From Iphione sp. A-MEVVRFRX5 (Eukaryota), in NCBI GenBank assembly GCA_976226885.1, contig OZ320315.1, positions 51,584,001 to 51,648,000 on the forward strand: a stretch of DNA of 64,000 bases, in the 5' to 3' direction. The notes beneath the pieces are model-generated. The model did no database searches and was not told the DNA's origin. It saw only the letters and a program-made list of their open reading frames with translations. Both the position numbers and the translations under genes were made by a program. Below, piece by piece: positions 1-11,930 of the stretch. Within the stretch, counting starts at the first letter, position 1, and the number at the start of each line of letters is the position of its first letter.

Positions 1-187
1 TTGATACAAAAGAATCAGGGAACCACTGAATTTGAGACATACATACCAAATAGGGTAACTCTGTAACTTTCAAGCATATTCAAATTATTTTAAGAAGATA
101 CACTTTACAAAAAGATGTTTTAACCACATTTTCCATTATTTCAAGTTAAACACTTATGAAAAGCATACTTTTACTCATAAATAATAT

Positions 188-379
188 TGTTCACCCTGAT
201 CAAAGAGACATGACTTGCCAATAAAATTTGATGAAGTTTATTGCTGAATGCTTATCACCCTAATGACAACGAGGGTCTGCCCGGCCTGCCTTTTATACAG
301 AATTGTAACTACGGATGGAGCCCCCCTTGAGATTAACTCTGGTAGACCAGCAGGCTCTGCACTGGCAGAGCCTGCAACA
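188..379 (-). repeat. 3' LTR (192 bp)
   Basis: Minus strand starts TGTTGCAGG and ends GGGTGAACA, contains TATAAAA followed by AATAAA, and is directly preceded by a PPT. No second copy seen, so no TSD check is possible. Confidence 0.75.
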
Positions 380-391
380 TTACCCCCTCCC
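380..391 (-). other. Polypurine tract
   Basis: Minus strand GGGAGGGGGTAA immediately 5' of the LTR-initial TGT. Confidence 0.7.
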
Positions 392-573
392 AAGACAGCT
401 CAGTTCCTGAGCTGATTGCATAATAAACATTAAGAACCTTTCTATAGTCTTGTTCCTACTTGAAACAGGCTTGTACTAGCCAATGTAACTCCAGTGCTTA
501 TCACAAAGGGATAAGGTCTGTACTGACCAACACTTACTTCAAGGATAACGTGAATGGTTAGTCCAACCTAAAA

Positions 574-2978
574 CTAGTCAGCTGAGGGGGCCTGTACTGG
601 CCACAGGGTTACCCTAAATTCCTCTTCCACTGTCAGTTCTACGTGCTCGGTGTCACAGAGTCAAGAGGTAAGCTCAGAGGAGAGGAGTGTGGTGATGAAG
701 GTGGGATCAGTCCTCTCTCTCCCCTGCAACCAAACCTCCAGTTCTGTGGCCTCCTCAGGCTGCAACATGTCCAGCAGCAGCTACACCCCCTGCCGGATCC
801 GGGCACTGGATAAATCCCCCTGGGCTGTCACCGTAGCTGTCCCTTCTGCGGTCATGATCCTCCATCCGGCAGGGGGCAGGGTGCGAGGTGTGATCAGGTG
901 GGCTTGCGCCCACCTGACCACAGCAGCTGGTACCTCTACCGGGTCTAAGTGAAACTGTCTGTATGCCCCAGGCCTGCCTCCCCCTCTCACAGGGCCTGGC
1001 CCTATCCCTGGTTGGGAGGGCCATGCTGAGTCCTTTGGGGGAGCCAGCGTGCTAGTAGCCAGAGGGCCCACTGGTAGTCCTGCTGCTTCAGTGCCAGGGG
1101 GTGCCATCCCAGTAGTGCTGGAGGAATATCCTGAGGTGGGGCAGCCACAGTTGGCCCCTCCTCATGTCGTCCTGGGGGTGCAGGGGGGATATCTGGAATA
1201 ACGGGGGGATATCCTGAGGTGGGGCAGCCATGGTTAGCCCCTCCTCACACCATCCCAGGGGTGCCAGGGGGGTATCTTGAGGTGGAACCGCCACGGTTGG
1301 CTCCTCCTCTCAATGTCCTGGGAGTGCCGGGGGGATATCCTGAGGTGGGGCCTCCTGGTCGCCTGGGTCCTCAGTGGTGGGCCCTCCTGGATGAGCTGGA
1401 GGCATCTGGACATCCCTCACAGGGCACATGATGAAGAGCGGAGCATCTGGAACCACGGGGTGCTCCTTGGGGGGCCTCTTGGTGCCTTGGTTGGGTGGAG
1501 CTTCCTCTTCCCGGGCTCTGCCAGAACTGGCCTCCACTGATGCCAATCCTCCCAGGCTGAGCAGCTGGACATTGGGCTGCACCCGGTCGGTCGTGGCGAG
1601 CTCTGCCAGTGAAGCGGCGGCCCAACCCTCCTAGAGCAGTGCCAAGTCTTCCATATCCGCGGCCTCGGTGGTGGGCGTCCCTCTGGCCATGTCCCATCAG
1701 GTGTAGCGGACTCGGCTACAGGGGGTGCCCACCAGATTTGCGCTCAGCTCCTGGGCCAAGGGCCTGGACGAGGTGGTAGAGTCCCATGGCGGTGCTTTGT
1801 CATCGGTGTCAGGGTATGATCCGATGACCATGACGTCCCTGACCTGATCCTCTCTCTCCACATTCTCCCAGCCCTCCCCCAGCCTCTCATCCAGCTCGCA
1901 GGTGGCCTGGCTGTAGGACGAGCTGGCAGAGGCAGGGATGGACTGGGGTCTGTCCCCAGATGCCCGACATGACCAGGGCCTGGTGGAGGGGGGACATCAT
2001 GGACGTGGCTGACTTCTTGGCGGGCGTAGGCAGGCTGGCCGAGTTGATCGGGGAGGTCTGGGGCAGGTACTTCCTCTTGCATCGCTCCTGCACTTCCTTC
2101 CGCATCGCTTGCAGGTCCCAACCCCAGCCAGGTGTAATGGGATTGTTCCAGTCCCCAGAAGAATCAGCTGGGGGCCTGGAGCAGAGTGTCAGAGGGCCCC
2201 GGACCCAGGTGGCCCCCGGTGTCGACGTGGCAGGTGAGGGGCCTGGGGCTGATGTCCCAGAAGTGTCCGAGGTGGAGGCTTGCTCTTGCCAGCTGGGGGC
2301 AAATGCTGGAGCTTCCGGCCAGCTCGTCTGACTGGAGCCTCCGGCGACTAGTCCAAGCTGAGCAGCATCTATAGAGGCAGATGATGTCAGGGTTGCTGGT
2401 GGGCGGCCTTTCCCTGGGGTGGCTATGGTAGAAGTCACTTGCCCCTGCCCAGCCCAGGGGTGCAGCTGCGGTCCCTCTGCTTCCTCATCCGCCTCTTCCA
2501 CCACCATCTCCTCCTCTGTATCCTCCTCTTCCACCGCCGAAGATCGGCCGGTGGCGGCAGGGGGCTTCTTGCACTTGGGAGGCCTCCTGGCCAACTTGAG
2601 ACGGGGTGGGGGCACCTTGCCCCATATCATGACCCCATCCTTCTGCCTCTCGTAGGCCTTGACCTGCAGCTCTCTCTGGTGCTCCTCCTGCCTGTCCTCC
2701 AGAACCGGGATCACCTTTTCAGTAGCTAGGTCCATAAACATGATATCCACTTCCTGCCTGACGGACAGCGGGTTATCGGTGTCCCCAGAGTGCTTCTTCT
2801 CAATGTGCCGCTGGAAGTCGTCCCGGCTGCCGAAGTGAGCCCCCTGACACCTGGTGACCGAGCACAGGTGCACAAACCCCTGCTATGCATATTTCTTCAC
2901 ATGGCAATCGAAGTTATGGGGTTTGTCGGAGATGTAGCCACACTTATTACAGATCTGCACCCTGCCCCTGGAGGCCAT
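574..2978 (-). pseudogene. Disrupted ~800-codon ORF: two C2H2 zinc fingers, acidic/Pro-rich middle, unknown C-terminal domain
   Basis: GCAGCCATGG start at 2978 gives MASRGRVQICNKCGYISDKPHNFDCHVKKYA*QGFVHLCSVTRCQGAHFGSRDDFQRHIEKKH. Track ORFs 2883..3122 and 1887..2873 share a frame, separated by one TAG. It continues through frameshifts/stops (PPQDIPP repeats; YRQFHLDPVEVPAAVVRWAQAHL...EEEFRVTLWPV) to TAG at 574-576. Confidence 0.65.
1120..1356. repeat. Four imperfect coding repeats (ATATCCTGAGGTGGGG core; PPQD(I/T)P on the minus strand)
   Basis: Core near 1126, 1209, 1272 and 1334, spaced about 60-80 bp apart. Confidence 0.75.
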
Positions 2979-3319
2979 GGCTGCATCTTCAAACTTGAGC
3001 TGTCTTGATGCTCCCTCACCGGTGAGCTCCACTGCATTCAGTTCCCTGATAGTGAACTGGGGCTGTTGCAAAAAGGCAGTAAACTTTTGGGATGGAACTG
3101 CTTCCCATGCAGAAAAGGTCACACCAAGAATGGACTATGGGAAACTATTTGAAATGTGATAGGACTGAACCAGGCACCAAGTTTTTAACACTAAACAGCT
3201 TCAAGTAATCTTTAATCAAGTGCCAGCTAATACTGCTATTTGAAATCTTGCAGATACTTTGGCTAATTTGAGTTTATTAGCACAAAATTTACACAGATTG
3301 TCTGTGAGCATTAATTAAT

Positions 3320-3916
3320 ATGTTGCTCTTACTCTGTTCTAGAACTTATCATGGCACTTGTATTCTTGTCATTTATGGAGCGCTGTTTGAGGACCACTTG
3401 AGAATGTGGCATCTTGACCTTATTTACAGAGTACAACTGATCCAAGCAAGTGGGTCATGGGCTGTCCTATGAATTAAATGATGTGCATCATGGAATCCAG
3501 CTTATCAGGTAACCAGCAATTGATCCAATGCCGAGCTGGTGGCACAACAACTCATGAGATTGCAGTTACAATGAGTTGGCGCTCTCAAAGCCAGGATCTC
3601 ATGTGGCATAAAATGCATTGAGAATATTCCATGACTCAGGACTGCTGAGCAAGGCCAACAGTTCCAAAATGATCAAATGGAATTTTTTGTGTTAGGGAAT
3701 CATATTAAATGCCAAAGGAGTTCGATAATTGCAATTGAGGCCATTGGACGATTTATCCTCATGGCTGGAACTACAACAGTATTTGGCATGGTGGAAAATG
3801 AAATACACATCATTAAACAACAAGTGACCCAACTGGAGCAACAACAGTTGGAGATCATCATGATAATGGGGACATGATGACAGTAATCAATCAAACACAT
3901 GTTGATACAAGATGTA
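3320..3916 (+). pseudogene. env: F-type (class I fusion) envelope-like gene, 5' part
   Basis: One frame from ATG 3320: hydrophobic MLLLLC start, YGALFE motif, then KCQR|SSIIAIEAIGRFILMAGTTTVFG (cleavage-site/fusion-peptide-like) and heptad-like EIHIIKQQVTQLEQQQLEII. Several in-frame stops. Confidence 0.7.
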
Positions 3917-4909
3917 ACATTCTCCCGGAATGCTCTCAGCCTTGTTGAGGAAGTTCTGCAGCAACTTCTTCTTGTAGTGGATCTTGATGTTCTGGATAAT
4001 TCCTTGATCCAGTGGCTGCAGTACTGAGGTGCCCTGTGGAGGAAGGAAGACCATCTTCACATGGCTTAACTTGAGACCATGTGGGTGTGATGGAGCATTA
4101 TCCAAAAGTAGCACCACATGCCTCCCTTGCCTCTTCATCTTATTGTTGAAGGTGTGCAGCCACTCTTCAAACACTGATGCTGTCATCCAAGCCTTGGTGT
4201 TGGACTTCCATGTCACTGGGAGGGATGACATGTCTATGTGTTTGAAGCATCTTGGTTTAGCTGCCTTGCCAATGAATAGTGTCTTTTCAAAGTCTCCCTC
4301 CATGTTTACACAAAGGGACACTGTAATTCTCTCCATTGACATCTTCACACCACTGGTTGAAGATCCCTTGGTGGCAAGGGTCCTATCAGGCATGATCCTG
4401 TAGAACATCTCATCCATGTTGTAGATGTTGGCAGGGCTGTAGCCTTCCAGCTTCTCAGGCAGATGTTGCAGCCAGTCCTCAACAGTGGACTCCTCCACTG
4501 CTCCACTCTCTCCACACACCTTCAAGGCCCCAATGGAGTGTCTAATATTGAAGCGTTGGAGCCACCCCACTGAGGCCTTGAAGTCAGGCAGGTTGAGCTC
4601 CTTGCTCAGGCTGAGGGCCTTCTCCTGAATGGCAGGCCCTGAGATTGGGATGTTCAGGGACCTCATCCTGCTGAACCATTTGAAGACTGCTGTGTCCAGG
4701 GTGGAGAGGTCAGGGGAGTAATGGTGCCTCTTGGCTGAGGGGTCTGGACATTTGTCAAACTCCTCCATGATCTCCCTCTTCCTCTTAAGGATGCATTGCA
4801 CTTGAGTCTTCCCAACCTTGGACTCCTCAGCAAGGCTCCTTTGGCTCCTCCCTGTGGAGACCCTGATGAGCTTCACCTTGTCCCCAAGGGAGAGTTCGTT
4901 TCTGGGCAT
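3887..4909 (-). pseudogene. pogo/Tigger transposase (CENP-B-type HTH, Tc5 HTH, DDE_1), truncated
   Basis: MPRNELSLGDKVKLI...FKASVGWLQRFNIRH...IYNMDE...LLLDNAPSH...QPLDQGII. The likely start is ATG 4909. The last ~10 codons read through into env sequence. Confidence 0.92.
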
Positions 4910-5746
4910 CTTGGTGTGACAGGAGCTGTAACTGGAGATGTGTGTCCTCACTGGAGACCAGGAGAAGAGTGATTTCTGGAGCTGTCTGACCCCCCTTGTG
5001 TATGCTTGCTGCTCCTGGCTTGGCGGGAAATGGCCCGGACCATCCCGGCCGCCCCTCCAGGGTGAGAGAACATCAGAGACATCACAGTTGATGCCCCTGA
5101 CCACTCCCAGCTGACCCTCTCCAAGGTGTGGGCAGATCAGAGAAGTTGCAGATGATGCCCCCGACCACTCCTGGCCGACCCCCTCCAAGGTGGGGCAGAT
5201 CAGAGAAGTCACAGTTGACAGCTTGGACCCTCCCAACTGACTCCTCCAGGGTGTGGGTACATCAGAGAAGTCGCAGTTGATGCCCCCGACCACTCCCAAC
5301 CCACACTTTCCAAGGTGTGAGCAGATCAGAGAAGTCGCAGTTGACGCCTCGGACTGCCCTGGCTGACCCCTCCTGGGTGTGGGTACATCAGAGAAGTCGC
5401 AGTTGATGCCCCCGACCACTCCCAGCCCACCCTCTCCAAGGTGTGGGCAGATCAGAGAGGTCGCAGTTGATGCCTCGGACCGCCCTGGCTGACCCCTACA
5501 GGGTGTTGGTACATCAGAGTTAGAGACTGTCCCAGCTGAAAATGGTCGGAAATCAATAGTAAAATATACAGAAAGCGTCCCTAGGAGGAGTGGTCAGAGG
5601 CTGAAAATGGTCAGAAATCAATATGGTCGGAAATTGTGAGTCAATCATATAGGAAATGTATTGAAATTAATTCCGTTCCAAGGTGAAGTGGTAGGAATGG
5701 CCGGTTTGGTCGGTAATCGAGGTGGTCGGAAATTAAGATTATACTG
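3917..5746 (-). mobile_element. Tigger/pogo DNA transposon, 3'-truncated, inserted in env
   Basis: Minus-strand end TA|CAGTATAATCTT at 5748/5746, repeated subterminal TGGTCGGAAAT motifs, and a transposase ORF. The opposite TIR and the transposase C-terminus are missing near 3917. Confidence 0.9.
5072..5520. repeat. Minisatellite, seven 62-64-bp units, mostly alternating 64/62 (126-bp dimer)
   Basis: ATCAGAG anchors at 5072, 5136, 5199, 5261, 5325, 5387, 5451, 5513. Confidence 0.95.
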
Positions 5747-5748
5747 TA

Positions 5749-6987
5749 CATTCACATTAGTGACCTTATTGTCTCAGTGAAGGCCCTTGAGCAAGATTTG
5801 TGGACCACCTTGCATATCATTAGCAATGTCACCACTCAAGAAATCCAGCACATTCATGGTATTCTGAATGCGGAGTGATACTTGAGTTTGGCTGGATGTT
5901 AGGTAGAGGTCCATTGTCAAGCTGGAGGCATGAATTGACCATTTGTTAGGTGGACATTTGACACCGGAAGTTATTCCTGCCACTGAGGTACAACCTCTGT
6001 TGCCTGCTGTTGAGTGACAACTGCCATCTCAGTTGAGATTCCCTATCTGTCCAAGGATGTGTAGAGCAATTATAACACCCTGGAGGGTACCAGCGTCATC
6101 TTTGAGAGACTCATCATCACTTCAAATTTGGTACCTCTCATTGACCCGCTGGCATCTTACCATCTATGAAGCCATTAATATTTTGGTACCTATACCAGAA
6201 GCGTGTGCCATCCAATTCAACCTTGAATTTTCCTATTTTAGAATAACCAAGGACCACTGGTGGTATGCTGTTGCCACCGCAGAAGAGCTAATTCACTGTC
6301 GATTGCAAGATGGGTCATGTTTAGTGTCTTGCCCAGTGTATGAAATAAATTGGCATTCATATTCTGTTCTAGCCATTTTTCATCAAGAGGTTAAGCATGT
6401 CTCAAAACTGTGTAAGTGAATTGTTTTAGACAATGTAACTATGTCACTGGCTAAGTACTGTACCTTGACCGAGGTAATTCAGTTGTTACCAATCCAGTTG
6501 CTTTAAATATGCATATCTACTGTGTGAATGGAAGTATTTTTTGACACAGTGCACCTGTGTCCTTTAACCTGGTCAAACTTCCCAACGGTTGTGATGTGGT
6601 AGGTCATGAAATGTCCTTACCTTCTTATTATCTACAACGAAGGGGGTATGAGGTTGAACAGGATCCATTGGTTTTACCTTTTAAATAGTTGATCACTGAA
6701 TCTTTGGTGTGGATGCCACCGTTACCTCCCATTCTGAGCACACTTGTGCTCTCAAGCCATTACCTGATCAGGTGGGGACCGACATTGAGGATATCATTCA
6801 ATATGTTAATGTCCTACATGTTGTGAGGAACCCTCTTTTACCAGGTGCCTCTACTATGTCCACTATAATGTAGGTGATTGGTGGGGTCAGTTTGGCTTTG
6901 ATCCTCTGTATGTGTTGCTACTGTTGTCTCTGCAGTCAGGGGCATTGGCGAAGGTTCACCCCACGTGGGTTTGAGCAACGTCGCTAG
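5749..6987 (+). pseudogene. env: F-type envelope-like gene, 3' part with TM segment
   Basis: HISDLIVSVKALEQDL...IDHLLGGHLTPEVIP...LPSQLRFP...Cys-rich ectodomain...VIGGVSLALILCMCCYCCLC...RR* (TAG 6985-6987). Many stops and frameshifts. Confidence 0.75.
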
Positions 6988-7333
6988 AACGGTTATGACA
7001 CACTGTCTGAAGACCATCCATTTATGCTACCAGCTCTCCCAGTGTACTTATTGTGATATCCCAGGGCACTCCATCATTAATTGTGCTCCCACCATCCTTA
7101 CCTGAACTGGAGCACATTGTGGCTGAGTGCACTGTTAGATTTAAGCATGGCCTGAAGGAGTTAGCAGTTTATTCTCCTACCAGTCCCAATGCACCCCCTG
7201 GGGTCCGTCATGGTTATACACATTACTTTTCTATTTTATGTTAAGATGGTTTGAAATACAGTATTGGCAGAGAGAGAGAAGATCTCTTGCTCAACCTGTA
7301 TTTTATGTTGTTGTGTTAAAATGCACATTGTGT

Positions 7334-7339
7334 AATAAA
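7334..7339 (+). terminator. Candidate polyadenylation signal for the antisense env unit
   Basis: AATAAA about 350 bp after the env stop, in the spacer before the pol end. Function is inferred only. Confidence 0.35.
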
Positions 7340-7509
7340 TAATGATTCTCATGTAATCACTTTTGATAAGAGATATAATGGTAAAAGATCTCCTAAATAT
7401 TATGTCCTGTCCAAGGCTTCAAATTGTATTACATCTTTGAAAGTGAATGATCAGGTAATTGTAATGAATGTTGAGCATGGTGCATGCAGGAGAGATATAT
7501 GAGTGTGCA

Positions 7510-8130
7510 TCAAGCTGTACATATTCGTTTCTTAAAGTTGGACTCATGGCTCGTTCCTCGGTCTGGACATGATCCACTGGGTTAACATCTTTTTTCTTCT
7601 TTTAGGTGTGGTGCAGGTCATTCATTCTCATGCCTTAGTTATCAACAGAACTGGGCCACACTTCAATACAACCAACATTCTTCTCTGGGTCTTTTTGGCT
7701 TATGATACAGAAGGCTTTCCGACTGTCCCTCTTCGAGTGTCTCTCAATGCAGGACTTCCTCCACTGGCCATAGGTAGGGTGATGGTTCCTTCCTATCCAA
7801 GCCCATCAGCAGGCGTTTTTGTGTCATCTTCTTCTTGCAACCTTTGGCTTTGTTGTATGTATTAATTAGGACCATACAACTCTGAGAGCCACATTGGCTT
7901 GTCATAAGGAAGGCCACATTTCATGATCTACCTGTATTGGAATATCCAGTTATGCTAGAAAGTCTGCTGCCGCCTTCTCTTAGGATGTCACGAGAAGGCA
8001 AACTGCACTGTGGTAAGCACCTTACAGGCCTTTTTCCATTTTAGTGGTTATACACAGGCTGAGTTCTGTAGAAAACTTTTTCCAATGGAATACATGTGTC
8101 ATGTAAAGTGTATAGTTATATCTTACCAAG
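7510..8130 (-). pseudogene. Gypsy integrase C-terminal (GPY/F-like) remnant and pol tail
   Basis: YSIGKSFLQNS..PLKWKKACKVLT..HPKRRRQQTF*HN..Y..PMWL resembles YxVGDxVxLxNP..PKWKGPYKV..VHHNRLKPY..PxW. The tail ends ..MSRPRN..LRNEYV. Highly degenerate. Confidence 0.55.
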
Positions 8131-9738
8131 TAAAGCCTTGTATGACATACTTAACTGAGACAAAAATTTTTGTCAAGTAATCATGTTCTTGGAATCAGCT
8201 CTCAGCAGAACATGCTCCTAGGTAAAACATTATAACAACTTGTTTCACAGTGTCGTGTCTGATGTGAACAAAGTAACTCTTATCATCTACATCTCATGAT
8301 GTACCCTGTGTACTTGATACTGTGATGTCATTCAGCATAAAACAAAAACAACTATTGCTCGAGCAGTTCTTATTTATGTTTATTTCTGGATCACTGGATG
8401 TTTGTGTGCAGTGTTTGTCATAATGTTTGAGTATATATAAGGAATTGCTCCAATGCTCTTGTTGGACTCAGCACTTGCTGAACTCTACTGTACTATATGC
8501 TGTGAAGAAGAAAAAAGCCTGCAATTGAACCTACTGGTGTGGTGTGCACTTGGTTGTTACACCAGTAGCAGGTAGCATGTTTACTCAGAACATCATCTTG
8601 AACTAAGGTACTGCACATGTCTGACCCAGTAAGCAATCTACTGAGCATCCACATTGGACGGAGATGCTCTGCACAAAACCCTCTCATTTATATCAAAATA
8701 CAAGTTGAAACAGCTTCCAAGTATGTCTGAAAGTTGTCTATGTTAAATTTGAATCCTCCTACTAATTATTTAACTGCAAACACTCTAATCTCTCCACATT
8801 GGACAAAAGTCCAGTCAATACCCATCCAACATTTTGGTCGGGTTAAATTGGAATTTATAAGCCTACTGGGACATCCCAGTGAAGGGTCCACAGACCCTGT
8901 ACGCAAAAACGAATGCTGATGGGTTAACAGCCACTAAAGTGTGGTCTTGACTTTATTCCCTGCTCGATTCTACATATGTATGCCAGAAACATACCTATTT
9001 GGATGCATTTTATGGTCGATTGATTGTCTTTATCGACTCACACAAGGCATGTTCGCTAAAAAAGCATCATATTGAACAATCGTTGTGTGCACATCTGACC
9101 AGAATCTTCAATTAAAATAAGATATGAGTTGAAATGGCTTACACACGCATCAGAAAGGTGTATTTATGATCTATTTAAGTAATTTCTGACTTGGTTTCGT
9201 CCAAAATGGTCTCATCTGTCCATAGTTCTATGGACAAAAGTCCAGTGAACACCAATCCACCATTTGGATTTGGTTAAATCGAACATAATAGGCCTATTAT
9301 GATTTTTCATATTTCACCTTTGACCTCATACCACACGCTTGTGCGGTGTGTGATCACAGACATGCACGGTCTGAGACGGTAGTATTGTGAAAAGTTTACT
9401 GCATGACCGGGGAATAAAATTGAAATACAGCTAGTCCTTGGATTTTTGGGAAGAGCTTGTGACTGTCTACCTCTCTGCTAACTTTAAAGACATGCTCACA
9501 ATGTCGACTCCCTATAAAGGGGTGCCAATTCCGGAGAACAGGGCGTGTTCAGCTGCTCAAGGGCAACCAAAAACCGAGGAAGAAAAACTAATTGTGAAAT
9601 GCCATTGTTTCAAAGTTCGCTCGCATAATGGTAAATTAAAACCTTTCAGCTTTTGCAATGTCTACTCGAGACTATTTAGTATCATCATCTCAGTTTTCGG
9701 TTGTTCACTCTGTGTCTCAATGTGGTCTCGTTATCTAC

Positions 9739-10549: not shown

Positions 10550-11930
10550 TTGATACTTATCATCCTTCGATCAAATATCCTTGAGAGGAGATCAGCAGAC
10601 TGCATCATGATTGCCTTTAAAATTTTTGTGGGAATACCTATTACCCCTGAAGACTTGGTGACATCAATGTAGGAGATCAGTATCCTAACATCGCCGCTGA
10701 CGGCATAGGGATGTCATATTTCCTAACATCAGACACAGTTTCCACATTACCAAAATTTGGTGGCACTGCCAGCTTTTCAATTTCTTCAATGAAGAAGCGG
10801 ATGAAATCCTCTACCACCTTAGCTGGATCTCCCTGTCTATCCTCCCCATGAATTGGTGGAAAGACTGGAGTATCTGCTTTCTTTCCTATTGACTCATATA
10901 TAACCTCCCACAATTTGCGAGTGTCTTTCTTAGCTGACCTAATTTTATGCCAGTAATCTCTTTCTTCAGCCTTGACTTACTTCCAAAGCTTGGTGTTTAA
11001 AAACTTAAAAATCCTAAGGCTGTCCTCGCAGCAATAACTCTTCCACCGGCAGAGAAAGTACTGGCGATCAGCCGCTACCTCCCGTGCCCCATTACACGTA
11101 CTTAGTCTGAAATCATCTCGTCGTACCAACTTGTTCTTAACTAACCCAGGGCACTGCTCATTAAGATTATCTTTGATTACTGTTTCAAAGATCTCCCACT
11201 GCTTCTCATGATCACTCTCATCCACATTGAGTGCAGATTGTACATTGTGAACAAAACCATTTATGTCCGTGTCCCCCAACCTACAGATTGTATGAGGCTC
11301 CTACGCTTTACTTCCCACCCCTTTCTTTATGACTACCCCTACAGGTAATGAGCCAGTGAAACCACCAGAATGTCCACTGAAATCCATCCACACATGGTCG
11401 TTACAGTTAAACCCACCAATCATAGTAGGATCGTTAATTAGTTGAGTAAACCCATAGCCGATTAATAACTATGATATGCCCATTCTGTTACACTCAGAAT
11501 CCCCAAAATTATAATTGAAATCGCCGGCCACTATTGAGTCATCAGTCCCATGTTGGCTCATGATTCCCATCACTTTGCTTAGACTATGTACAGAATCAGC
11601 TACCATCACCTGAACTGGTTTCCGCTTACCAATTTTGACTCTAACCCCCCAAAACAGATCCACAGTCGGGCGATATTCCTCTAATAGGGTGATTTCATCT
11701 TTTGTATAAATAGCCAAACCACCTCCCTTTTTACCTCTGGCACTCTCTCTATCTCTACGTATGAGATTATAACCAGGTATTAGTAAACAAGTGTCGGAGT
11801 AACTACCATTTAGCCAAGTCTCCCGTATACAACATACATGCACATTGTCTGCCTCTAGTGTCATACTAAGTTCATGTAGTTTCTTGTTCAAACTTCTCAC
11901 ATTGTAATACACCACTCTCACACCTCTCAT
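10550..11930 (-). pseudogene. L2/CR1-like LINE ORF2 fragment: APE endonuclease, linker, start of RT
   Basis: YYNVRSLNKK..CCIRETWLN..RRDR..GGGLAIY..VAGDFN..DHVW; linker ..TRKLWEVI..; KSSG..GIPTKILK..LLSRIFD, then truncated. Confidence 0.9.

Follow-up and report, generated by a model that had tools for sequence, protein, structure and literature searches.

A zinc-finger extension of Pol in Ty3/Gypsy elements of Iphione sp. and its putative family-specific DNA words

Results

A dead element fragment joined to a foreign repeat

The window, by which we mean the whole 64,000-nucleotide stretch of Iphione sp. DNA that was analysed, carries at 188-3034 of its minus strand the decayed 3' end of a Ty3/Gypsy element (Table 1). 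This dead fragment is a member of an older family, C (the family letters A to K2 are labels of this analysis), and its nearest relatives are old, one of them with LTRs 89% identical. An earlier note on this DNA had described an ATG at 2978, a pair of C2H2-like fingers, a middle region of acidic and Pro-rich sequence and a C-terminal domain ending before the polypurine tract (PPT). Each of these is present on the minus strand: the ATG in GCC-ATG-G context, the fingers at 2951-2790 with finger 1 lacking its last His ligand, and the domain running to the stop at 576-574, before the PPT at 391-380. The reading frame is broken by stops at 2885-2883, 783-781 and 663-661 and by at least two frame changes besides, the family's GCGGAG sites are decayed in the 3' LTR, and nothing of the element's gag, pol or 5' LTR was found within the window. 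The CpG observed/expected ratio of the copy is 0.34, against 0.76 in a young copy, a depletion that only suggests that copies get methylated.

Table 1. Features of the window around the zinc-finger fragment
Feature	Position	Strand	Remarks
ATAT adjoining the LTR end	184..187	-	family's preferred target site
3' LTR, 192 bp, TG...CA	188..379	-	TATA 297-291, AATAAA 242-237
Polypurine tract (PPT)	380..391	-	
Zinc-finger ORF, decayed	574..2978	-	C-terminal extension of the family's pol frame
C-terminal domain, ~125 aa	574..965	-	kept across families; two internal stops in the window copy
63-83-nt repeats	1120..1343	-	encode the Pro/acidic region
C2H2 finger pair, CX2C and CX4C types	2790..2951	-	in-frame stop 2885-2883 between the fingers
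Junction of zinc-finger element fragment and foreign repeat	3034..3040	.	family homology stops at 3034
Different LTR element, decayed 3' part, env-like remains	3040..7390	+	opposite to the finger ORF; env-likeness judged by eye
Pyrimidine-CAG splice-acceptor string	3063..3078	-	inside the foreign repeat
pogo/Tigger-type DNA transposon	3917..5757	-	inserted in the foreign repeat; 568-aa open frame

Family homology ends short of 3100-7100, a stretch that had looked by eye like decayed pol of the element itself, and that reading was rejected. The same end point bears on the 3' splice site at 3063 from which the note had proposed a spliced RNA: the string exists, but it belongs to the foreign repeat. 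From 3039-3041 upward the DNA is that of the foreign family, whose copies share a similar pyrimidine-CAG string and then continue into unrelated sequence (with seven loci examined, five copies reach about 3040-3060, and one more ends at 3039). The window is probably a chimera of two repeats that arose by deletion. Taken alone, the copy in the window is a dead fragment of an ordinary kind, with a splice site next to it by coincidence; what it points to is a live radiation with an unusual candidate signal of self-recognition.

The foreign repeat has, by eye, a fusion-peptide-like stretch near 3720 and a TM-like stretch near 6900, and Pfam gave no support for env-likeness across 3040-7390; other copies of its family have an integrase upstream. 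A possible LTR remnant lies alongside it at 8091-8561. The frame of the inserted transposon encodes CENP-B_N, HTH_Tnp_Tc5 and DDE_1 domains and is preceded by 126-nt repeats. A decayed LINE-like element with an endonuclease/exonuclease/phosphatase domain occupies 10677-11930 (minus strand), and about 6-8 kb before the window start lies another fragment of the zinc-finger clade, an LTR joined to partial pol (L039:2104-4082).

The finger ORF is the end of a long pol frame

The earlier note placed the ORF in the position usual for env. Since gag, pol and 5' LTR are all missing from the window copy, this position can be seen in other copies only, where the ORF is in frame with pol. Young copies have it not as a separate ORF but as the final, C-terminal third of one pol frame. 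Eleven families of the Iphione sp. genome each have one open frame of 2171-2740 aa, in the order protease, RT, RNase H, integrase, SH3-like region, linker, two C2H2 fingers, acidic/Pro region and C-terminal domain (domain order from Pfam). A gag frame precedes protease-RT-RNase H-integrase, which is the Ty3/Gypsy order, and young copies have an LTR pair, a primer-binding site (PBS), a PPT and a target-site duplication. Family A has a pol-finger frame of 2413 aa between LTRs that are 99.5% identical and family B one of 2643 aa (LTRs 99.2%), while nine further families (D to K and K2) have frames of 2171-2740 aa with linkers of 79-391 aa and a homologous C-terminal domain. We fetched 31 loci and picked the long-frame copies from hit lists, so these numbers establish that such frames exist in each family and not how frequent they are. 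All families form one clade in a quick tree (SH-aLRT 98).

The extension after integrase is 900-1500 aa long. No stop separates pol from the finger region, the frame being open from protease to its end, and neither a transmembrane segment nor a signal peptide was seen in the extension, where the maximum 19-aa hydropathy is 0.76 (A) and 1.05 (B). The lack of a transmembrane segment indicates that the extension is not env, in agreement with the note, which had proposed an accessory protein. Searches of the same genome returned at least 150 matches for the finger region and at least 150 for the C-terminal domain, so the ORF is not missing from other copies. It is element-encoded and conserved (150/150 among the matches listed; finger-pair dN/dS 0.25) and not a single captured host fragment. 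The fetched finger matches are all element-linked except one, a lone finger pair at L161:1486-1938 (minus strand) with no pol within 10 kb upstream, which is closest to that of P0113 (see below) and could be a fragment or a domesticated copy.

Among the 120 matches listed for Pol relatives, one from another organism (P0113, from an ENA assembly), 2315 aa long, shares this layout, its finger pair being in the equivalent position. In a quick tree of 23 rows P0113 falls together with A, B, P0064 and P0115 (SH-aLRT 98; 91 for that split in a later tree), the last two of which have short tails; a further related Pol, P0112, ends in a chromodomain. The fingers of P0113 align weakly to those of the families (E 0.01-0.02), its C-terminal region gave no alignment to their C-terminal domain, and its tail matched a related finger pair in the Iphione sp. 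genome, which then matched many more families. The pol-finger layout may be widespread, and it may have been missed because the tail hides inside pol.

Several features of these elements were noted in passing. The gag ATG lies within U5 of the LTR, 16-32 nt before the PBS, in all families (as at L086:1-1030), so that the PBS is read as gag codons. Within the linker, ahead of the internal promoter-like site and after integrase, a basic helical segment is conserved in families A, B and C (L086:5997-6270), and in family A 73-bp tandem repeats of variable number lie between the ORF stop and the PPT (L022:440-620).

Selection and structure of the extension

Comparison of families A and B gave dN/dS of 0.25 for the fingers, 0.26 for the post-finger region and 0.13 for the middle, and pN of 0.33 against pS of 0.82 for the C-terminal domain. 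On these values the extension is under purifying selection, and the open frames of young copies together with dN/dS of 0.13-0.26 across it answer the check that the earlier note had proposed, an intact ORF with dN/dS below 1.

The fingers conform to the pattern C-x2/4-C-x12/13-H-x3/4-H with a beta-beta-alpha fold. They match zf-H2C2_5 at E 8.6e-6 and 25.7 bits, below the 27-bit cut-off, and CTCF and BCL11A at E of about 1e-3. A model of the finger pair (pLDDT 68.7) has helices at 20-33 and 52-64, a register that agrees with the count from the His residues. They are classical C2H2 fingers by this pattern, and from the helix residues and the motif arrays described below we infer that they bind DNA in a sequence-specific manner. 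No homologues of the finger region were found among proteins of 1249-3976 aa or of 224-2000 aa. The acidic blocks that follow reach 27 D/E per 60 aa.

The C-terminal domain is about 20% identical across families, with three Trp and one Glu invariant. A narrow A/B/C profile gave 0 matches in 1.84 billion representatives, no Pfam family was assigned (one member at E 0.16), and no PDB sequence matched under E 0.2. One of five models was confident (pLDDT 84.6; the other four 35-59), and Foldseek returned no match to it at E 0.001. The best structural match is to phage neck proteins (VIA Z 7.1, rmsd 4.2, 99 residues aligned), which is the level of a common arrangement and not a clear fold match. 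Our guess is that the domain is a cofactor-binding or oligomerising end.

Candidate signals for separate expression

The linker of families A, B and C contains two CCAAT boxes with a spacing of 30 bp, and a TATA-like box follows 33 bp beyond the second one. Third-position identity at this promoter-like site is raised, at 0.65 against 0.43-0.51 in RT, RNase H and integrase. CCAAT and TATA are also found in families I and J, and such a site was not seen in D-H and K. Of 45 non-duplicate rows, 43 have an ATG at 24 or 27 nt ahead of finger 1; in young copies no other ATG falls between the TATA and this one. The distance from TATA to the fingers varies from 250 to 317 nt among the 35 rows with a TATA match (10 rows have none), with the pol frame kept in 31 of the 35 rows and in 9 of 13 distinct lengths.

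For the lineage of the window (A, B, C, also I and J) the internal promoter-like site would take the place of the spliced RNA proposed earlier. The splicing idea survives in the sister families D, E and H, which have acceptor-like signals consisting of a branch point and a pyrimidine tract, all in one phase and in D 2-11 nt before the ATG; no consistent splice donor was found in gag of the acceptor-bearing families. Families G and K showed neither a TATA/CCAAT site nor a clear acceptor. Together these signals suggest that both a short finger product and the Pol fusion may be made.

Finger helices and words in the regulatory arrays

According to the tables in PMC7317221 and PMC5260015, RSDDLVR binds GCG and xxGNLVR modules read GAN. 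The finger 2 helix is R-x-x-D-x-x-R in all families and resembles RSDDLVR, and the family A finger 1, KPGNFDR, resembles xxGNLVR; combining the two gives the predicted word GCGGAN. An Arg at helix position +3 is expected to read G.

GCGGAG is the top hexamer of the LTR and internal promoter in families A and B, with 19 occurrences in 883 bp against 45 in 17,199 bp (p 1e-10), and in none of 2000 shuffles of each of the four regulatory pieces was its count matched. It was noticed there, as a GC box, before the fingers were decoded. The sites occupy fixed positions across 67 LTR rows and have decayed in the old ones; they flank the TATA box, and in most LTRs the U3 end has words no more than about 4-18 bp away.

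The LTRs of families with Asn at +3 of finger 1 (A, B, C, D, I, J) hold 2-10 GCGGA, those of the Arg+3 families G and K2 hold 5-7 GCGGG and 0-1 GCGGA, and that of K (Arg+3, Lys+6) has four GCGAG. In E, where finger 1 is degenerate, the LTR has no enriched GCG word and no array. A second array precedes the fingers, with counts per 600 bp of 11 (A) and 9 (B) GCGGAG, 5-12 (G) and 9 (K2) GCGGGG, 6 GCGAG (K) and 12-16 GCGGCT (F). Thus the word in both arrays tends, on these counts, to change with finger 1.

The general prediction was made first, and for eight families the proteins were examined before the DNA. The five-base word was predicted correctly for five of the eight (D, G, I, J and K2, with D differing at base 6) and half correctly for K, which differs at base 4. 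For F (HQSNLNR) it failed, the arrays showing GCGGC and not GCGGA, and for H (LQSNLNR) the LTR has no enriched GCG word. Since J and K2 repeat the helix types of I and G, only some four changes on the tree count as independent: G/K, K alone, F/H and E. GCGGAG is already present at 3.7-5.4 per 600 bp in the pol core of I and J.

As a control we examined a finger-less Gypsy family, which has 5 GCGGA in its 834-870-bp LTR, 3-4 of them within 250 bp; this is the one control LTR family recovered, in two copies, when five pairs among four elements were compared, against a background in which 5 of 243 windows reach 3. Such a family could use a host factor or borrow a finger protein in trans. It is young and env-bearing, with an extra ORF before gag (L227:3432-4264, L165, L170).

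Discussion

Judged from these sequences, it is likely that the elements encode their own sequence-specific gene switch. We hold it to be somewhat probable that the finger protein binds its own family's word in both arrays and activates its own element or keeps it unsilenced, and the arrays give real, though indirect, support to the earlier suggestion of a transactivator or anti-silencing factor. To a wider picture we would give about even chances: an animal Ty3/Gypsy radiation in which each element encodes a private two-finger factor, from its own mRNA and as a Pol tail, that co-evolves base by base with its own arrays in an activation or anti-silencing circuit and ends in a terminal domain of no known family. 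In such a circuit a short mRNA, made early from the internal promoter (A, B, C, I, J) or by splicing (D, E, H), would give a finger protein of about 840-1120 aa, whose binding to both arrays would bring about positive feedback and then activation of the LTR through its acidic regions. Action could consist of recruiting the transcription machinery or of blocking CpG methylation of the CpG-containing word. Because the same protein would also be made as a Pol tail, that form might accompany integrase and work on the copy just inserted.

Another way to view the fingers is as part of Pol itself. Reading their own word within Pol or integrase, they could hold the cDNA LTR ends or the genomic RNA during replication or integration, and both the integrase-to-finger frame, open in 11 families through changes of length, and the words so near the U3 end would fit this. 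However, the second array sits at an internal promoter-like site far from the ends, the LTR sites flank the TATA box, and the conserved ATG or acceptor of the finger region points to a Pol-independent product, so that we regard such a role as unlikely. The fingers might alternatively direct integration beside GCGGAG sites of the host genome, being fused to the integrase C-terminus, where chromoviruses carry their targeting domain. Among 44 3' flanks, all of family A, though, none has GCGGAG within 100 bp and two have it within 300 bp, the background level; it occurs in 1 of 10 5' flanks, and the target site in the 44 young 3' flanks is simply RTAT. We regard sequence-guided integration as most improbable.

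It could also be that the arrays serve GC-box factors of the host (Sp/KLF-like or others), with the fingers doing something else and the match partly a matter of coincidence or shared ancestry. The word GGGCGGAG, which we take to be also a classical Sp1-type box, overlaps the GCG-based word; GCGGA is also repeated in the LTR of the finger-less family, F and H depart from the code, and independent changes on the tree are few. Against this, 19 of the 31 GCGG sites in the A and B regulatory pieces are GCGGAG and one is GCGGGG, several lack a GGG 5' flank, the words of both arrays change along with finger 1, and family E, with its degenerate finger 1, has lost the array; we therefore think the host-factor account rather doubtful. 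Nor do we put much weight on the idea that the protein binds its own word and represses, as a control of copy number or timing. Sites on both sides of the TATA box would allow binding to block initiation, but acidic blocks fit transcription activation and the families are young and abundant. Activation or anti-silencing by an element-encoded factor is the reading we prefer.

The usual view of simple LTR retrotransposons is that they borrow transcription factors from the host. If the preferred reading is true, an element-encoded C2H2 factor aimed at its own promoters would mirror the zinc-finger proteins with which hosts repress transposons, and the dozen families of a single genome, differing in finger-1 helix and in word, would provide a natural series for the study of protein-DNA co-evolution and transposon counter-silencing. 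Chromoviruses and others carry add-on domains after the integrase SH3 region; the extension here differs in its 900-1500 aa, its own start signals and the lack of flank enrichment of the predicted word. We found no paper on such a system in a literature search to which Repbase, Dfam and supplements were external, so that a library entry may exist, and the available portions of PMC13524379, PMC2774666 and PMC13269885 do not describe it.

Among known additional ORFs, those of plant (PMC7264820) and rotifer (PMC5408684) LTR elements likewise place extra coding sequence in the env position; as far as the available text of these papers goes, they are env-like, antisense, GDSL esterases or DEDDy exonucleases, with no C2H2 pair in the pol frame. 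[quoted passage not shown]

Two systems resemble ours in their logic, and a Tas- or VANC-like strategy in animal Gypsy elements is what the preferred reading would amount to. VANDAL is a plant DNA transposon. Its VANC is a sequence-specific factor encoded by the transposon, with repeated targets that are not the same in related TE families, as set out in the sections seen of PMC5735166. The elements of Iphione sp. share with it family-specific repeated words that differ between relatives, a likeness drawn from sequence arrays; demethylation is a feature of the VANC side, and no homology is expected. Tas/Bel1 of foamy viruses, in the portion of PMC4929722 at hand, is an accessory gene near the 3' LTR with an internal promoter, and its protein binds both LTR and internal promoter. 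Here too the same word occurs in the LTR and at an internal promoter-like site, as known so far from sequence, but in Ty3/Gypsy elements without the env gene that membership of Spumaretrovirinae entails, with classical C2H2 fingers and with the gene in frame with pol. By analogy, the finger system would work like Tas and VANC while belonging to neither family.
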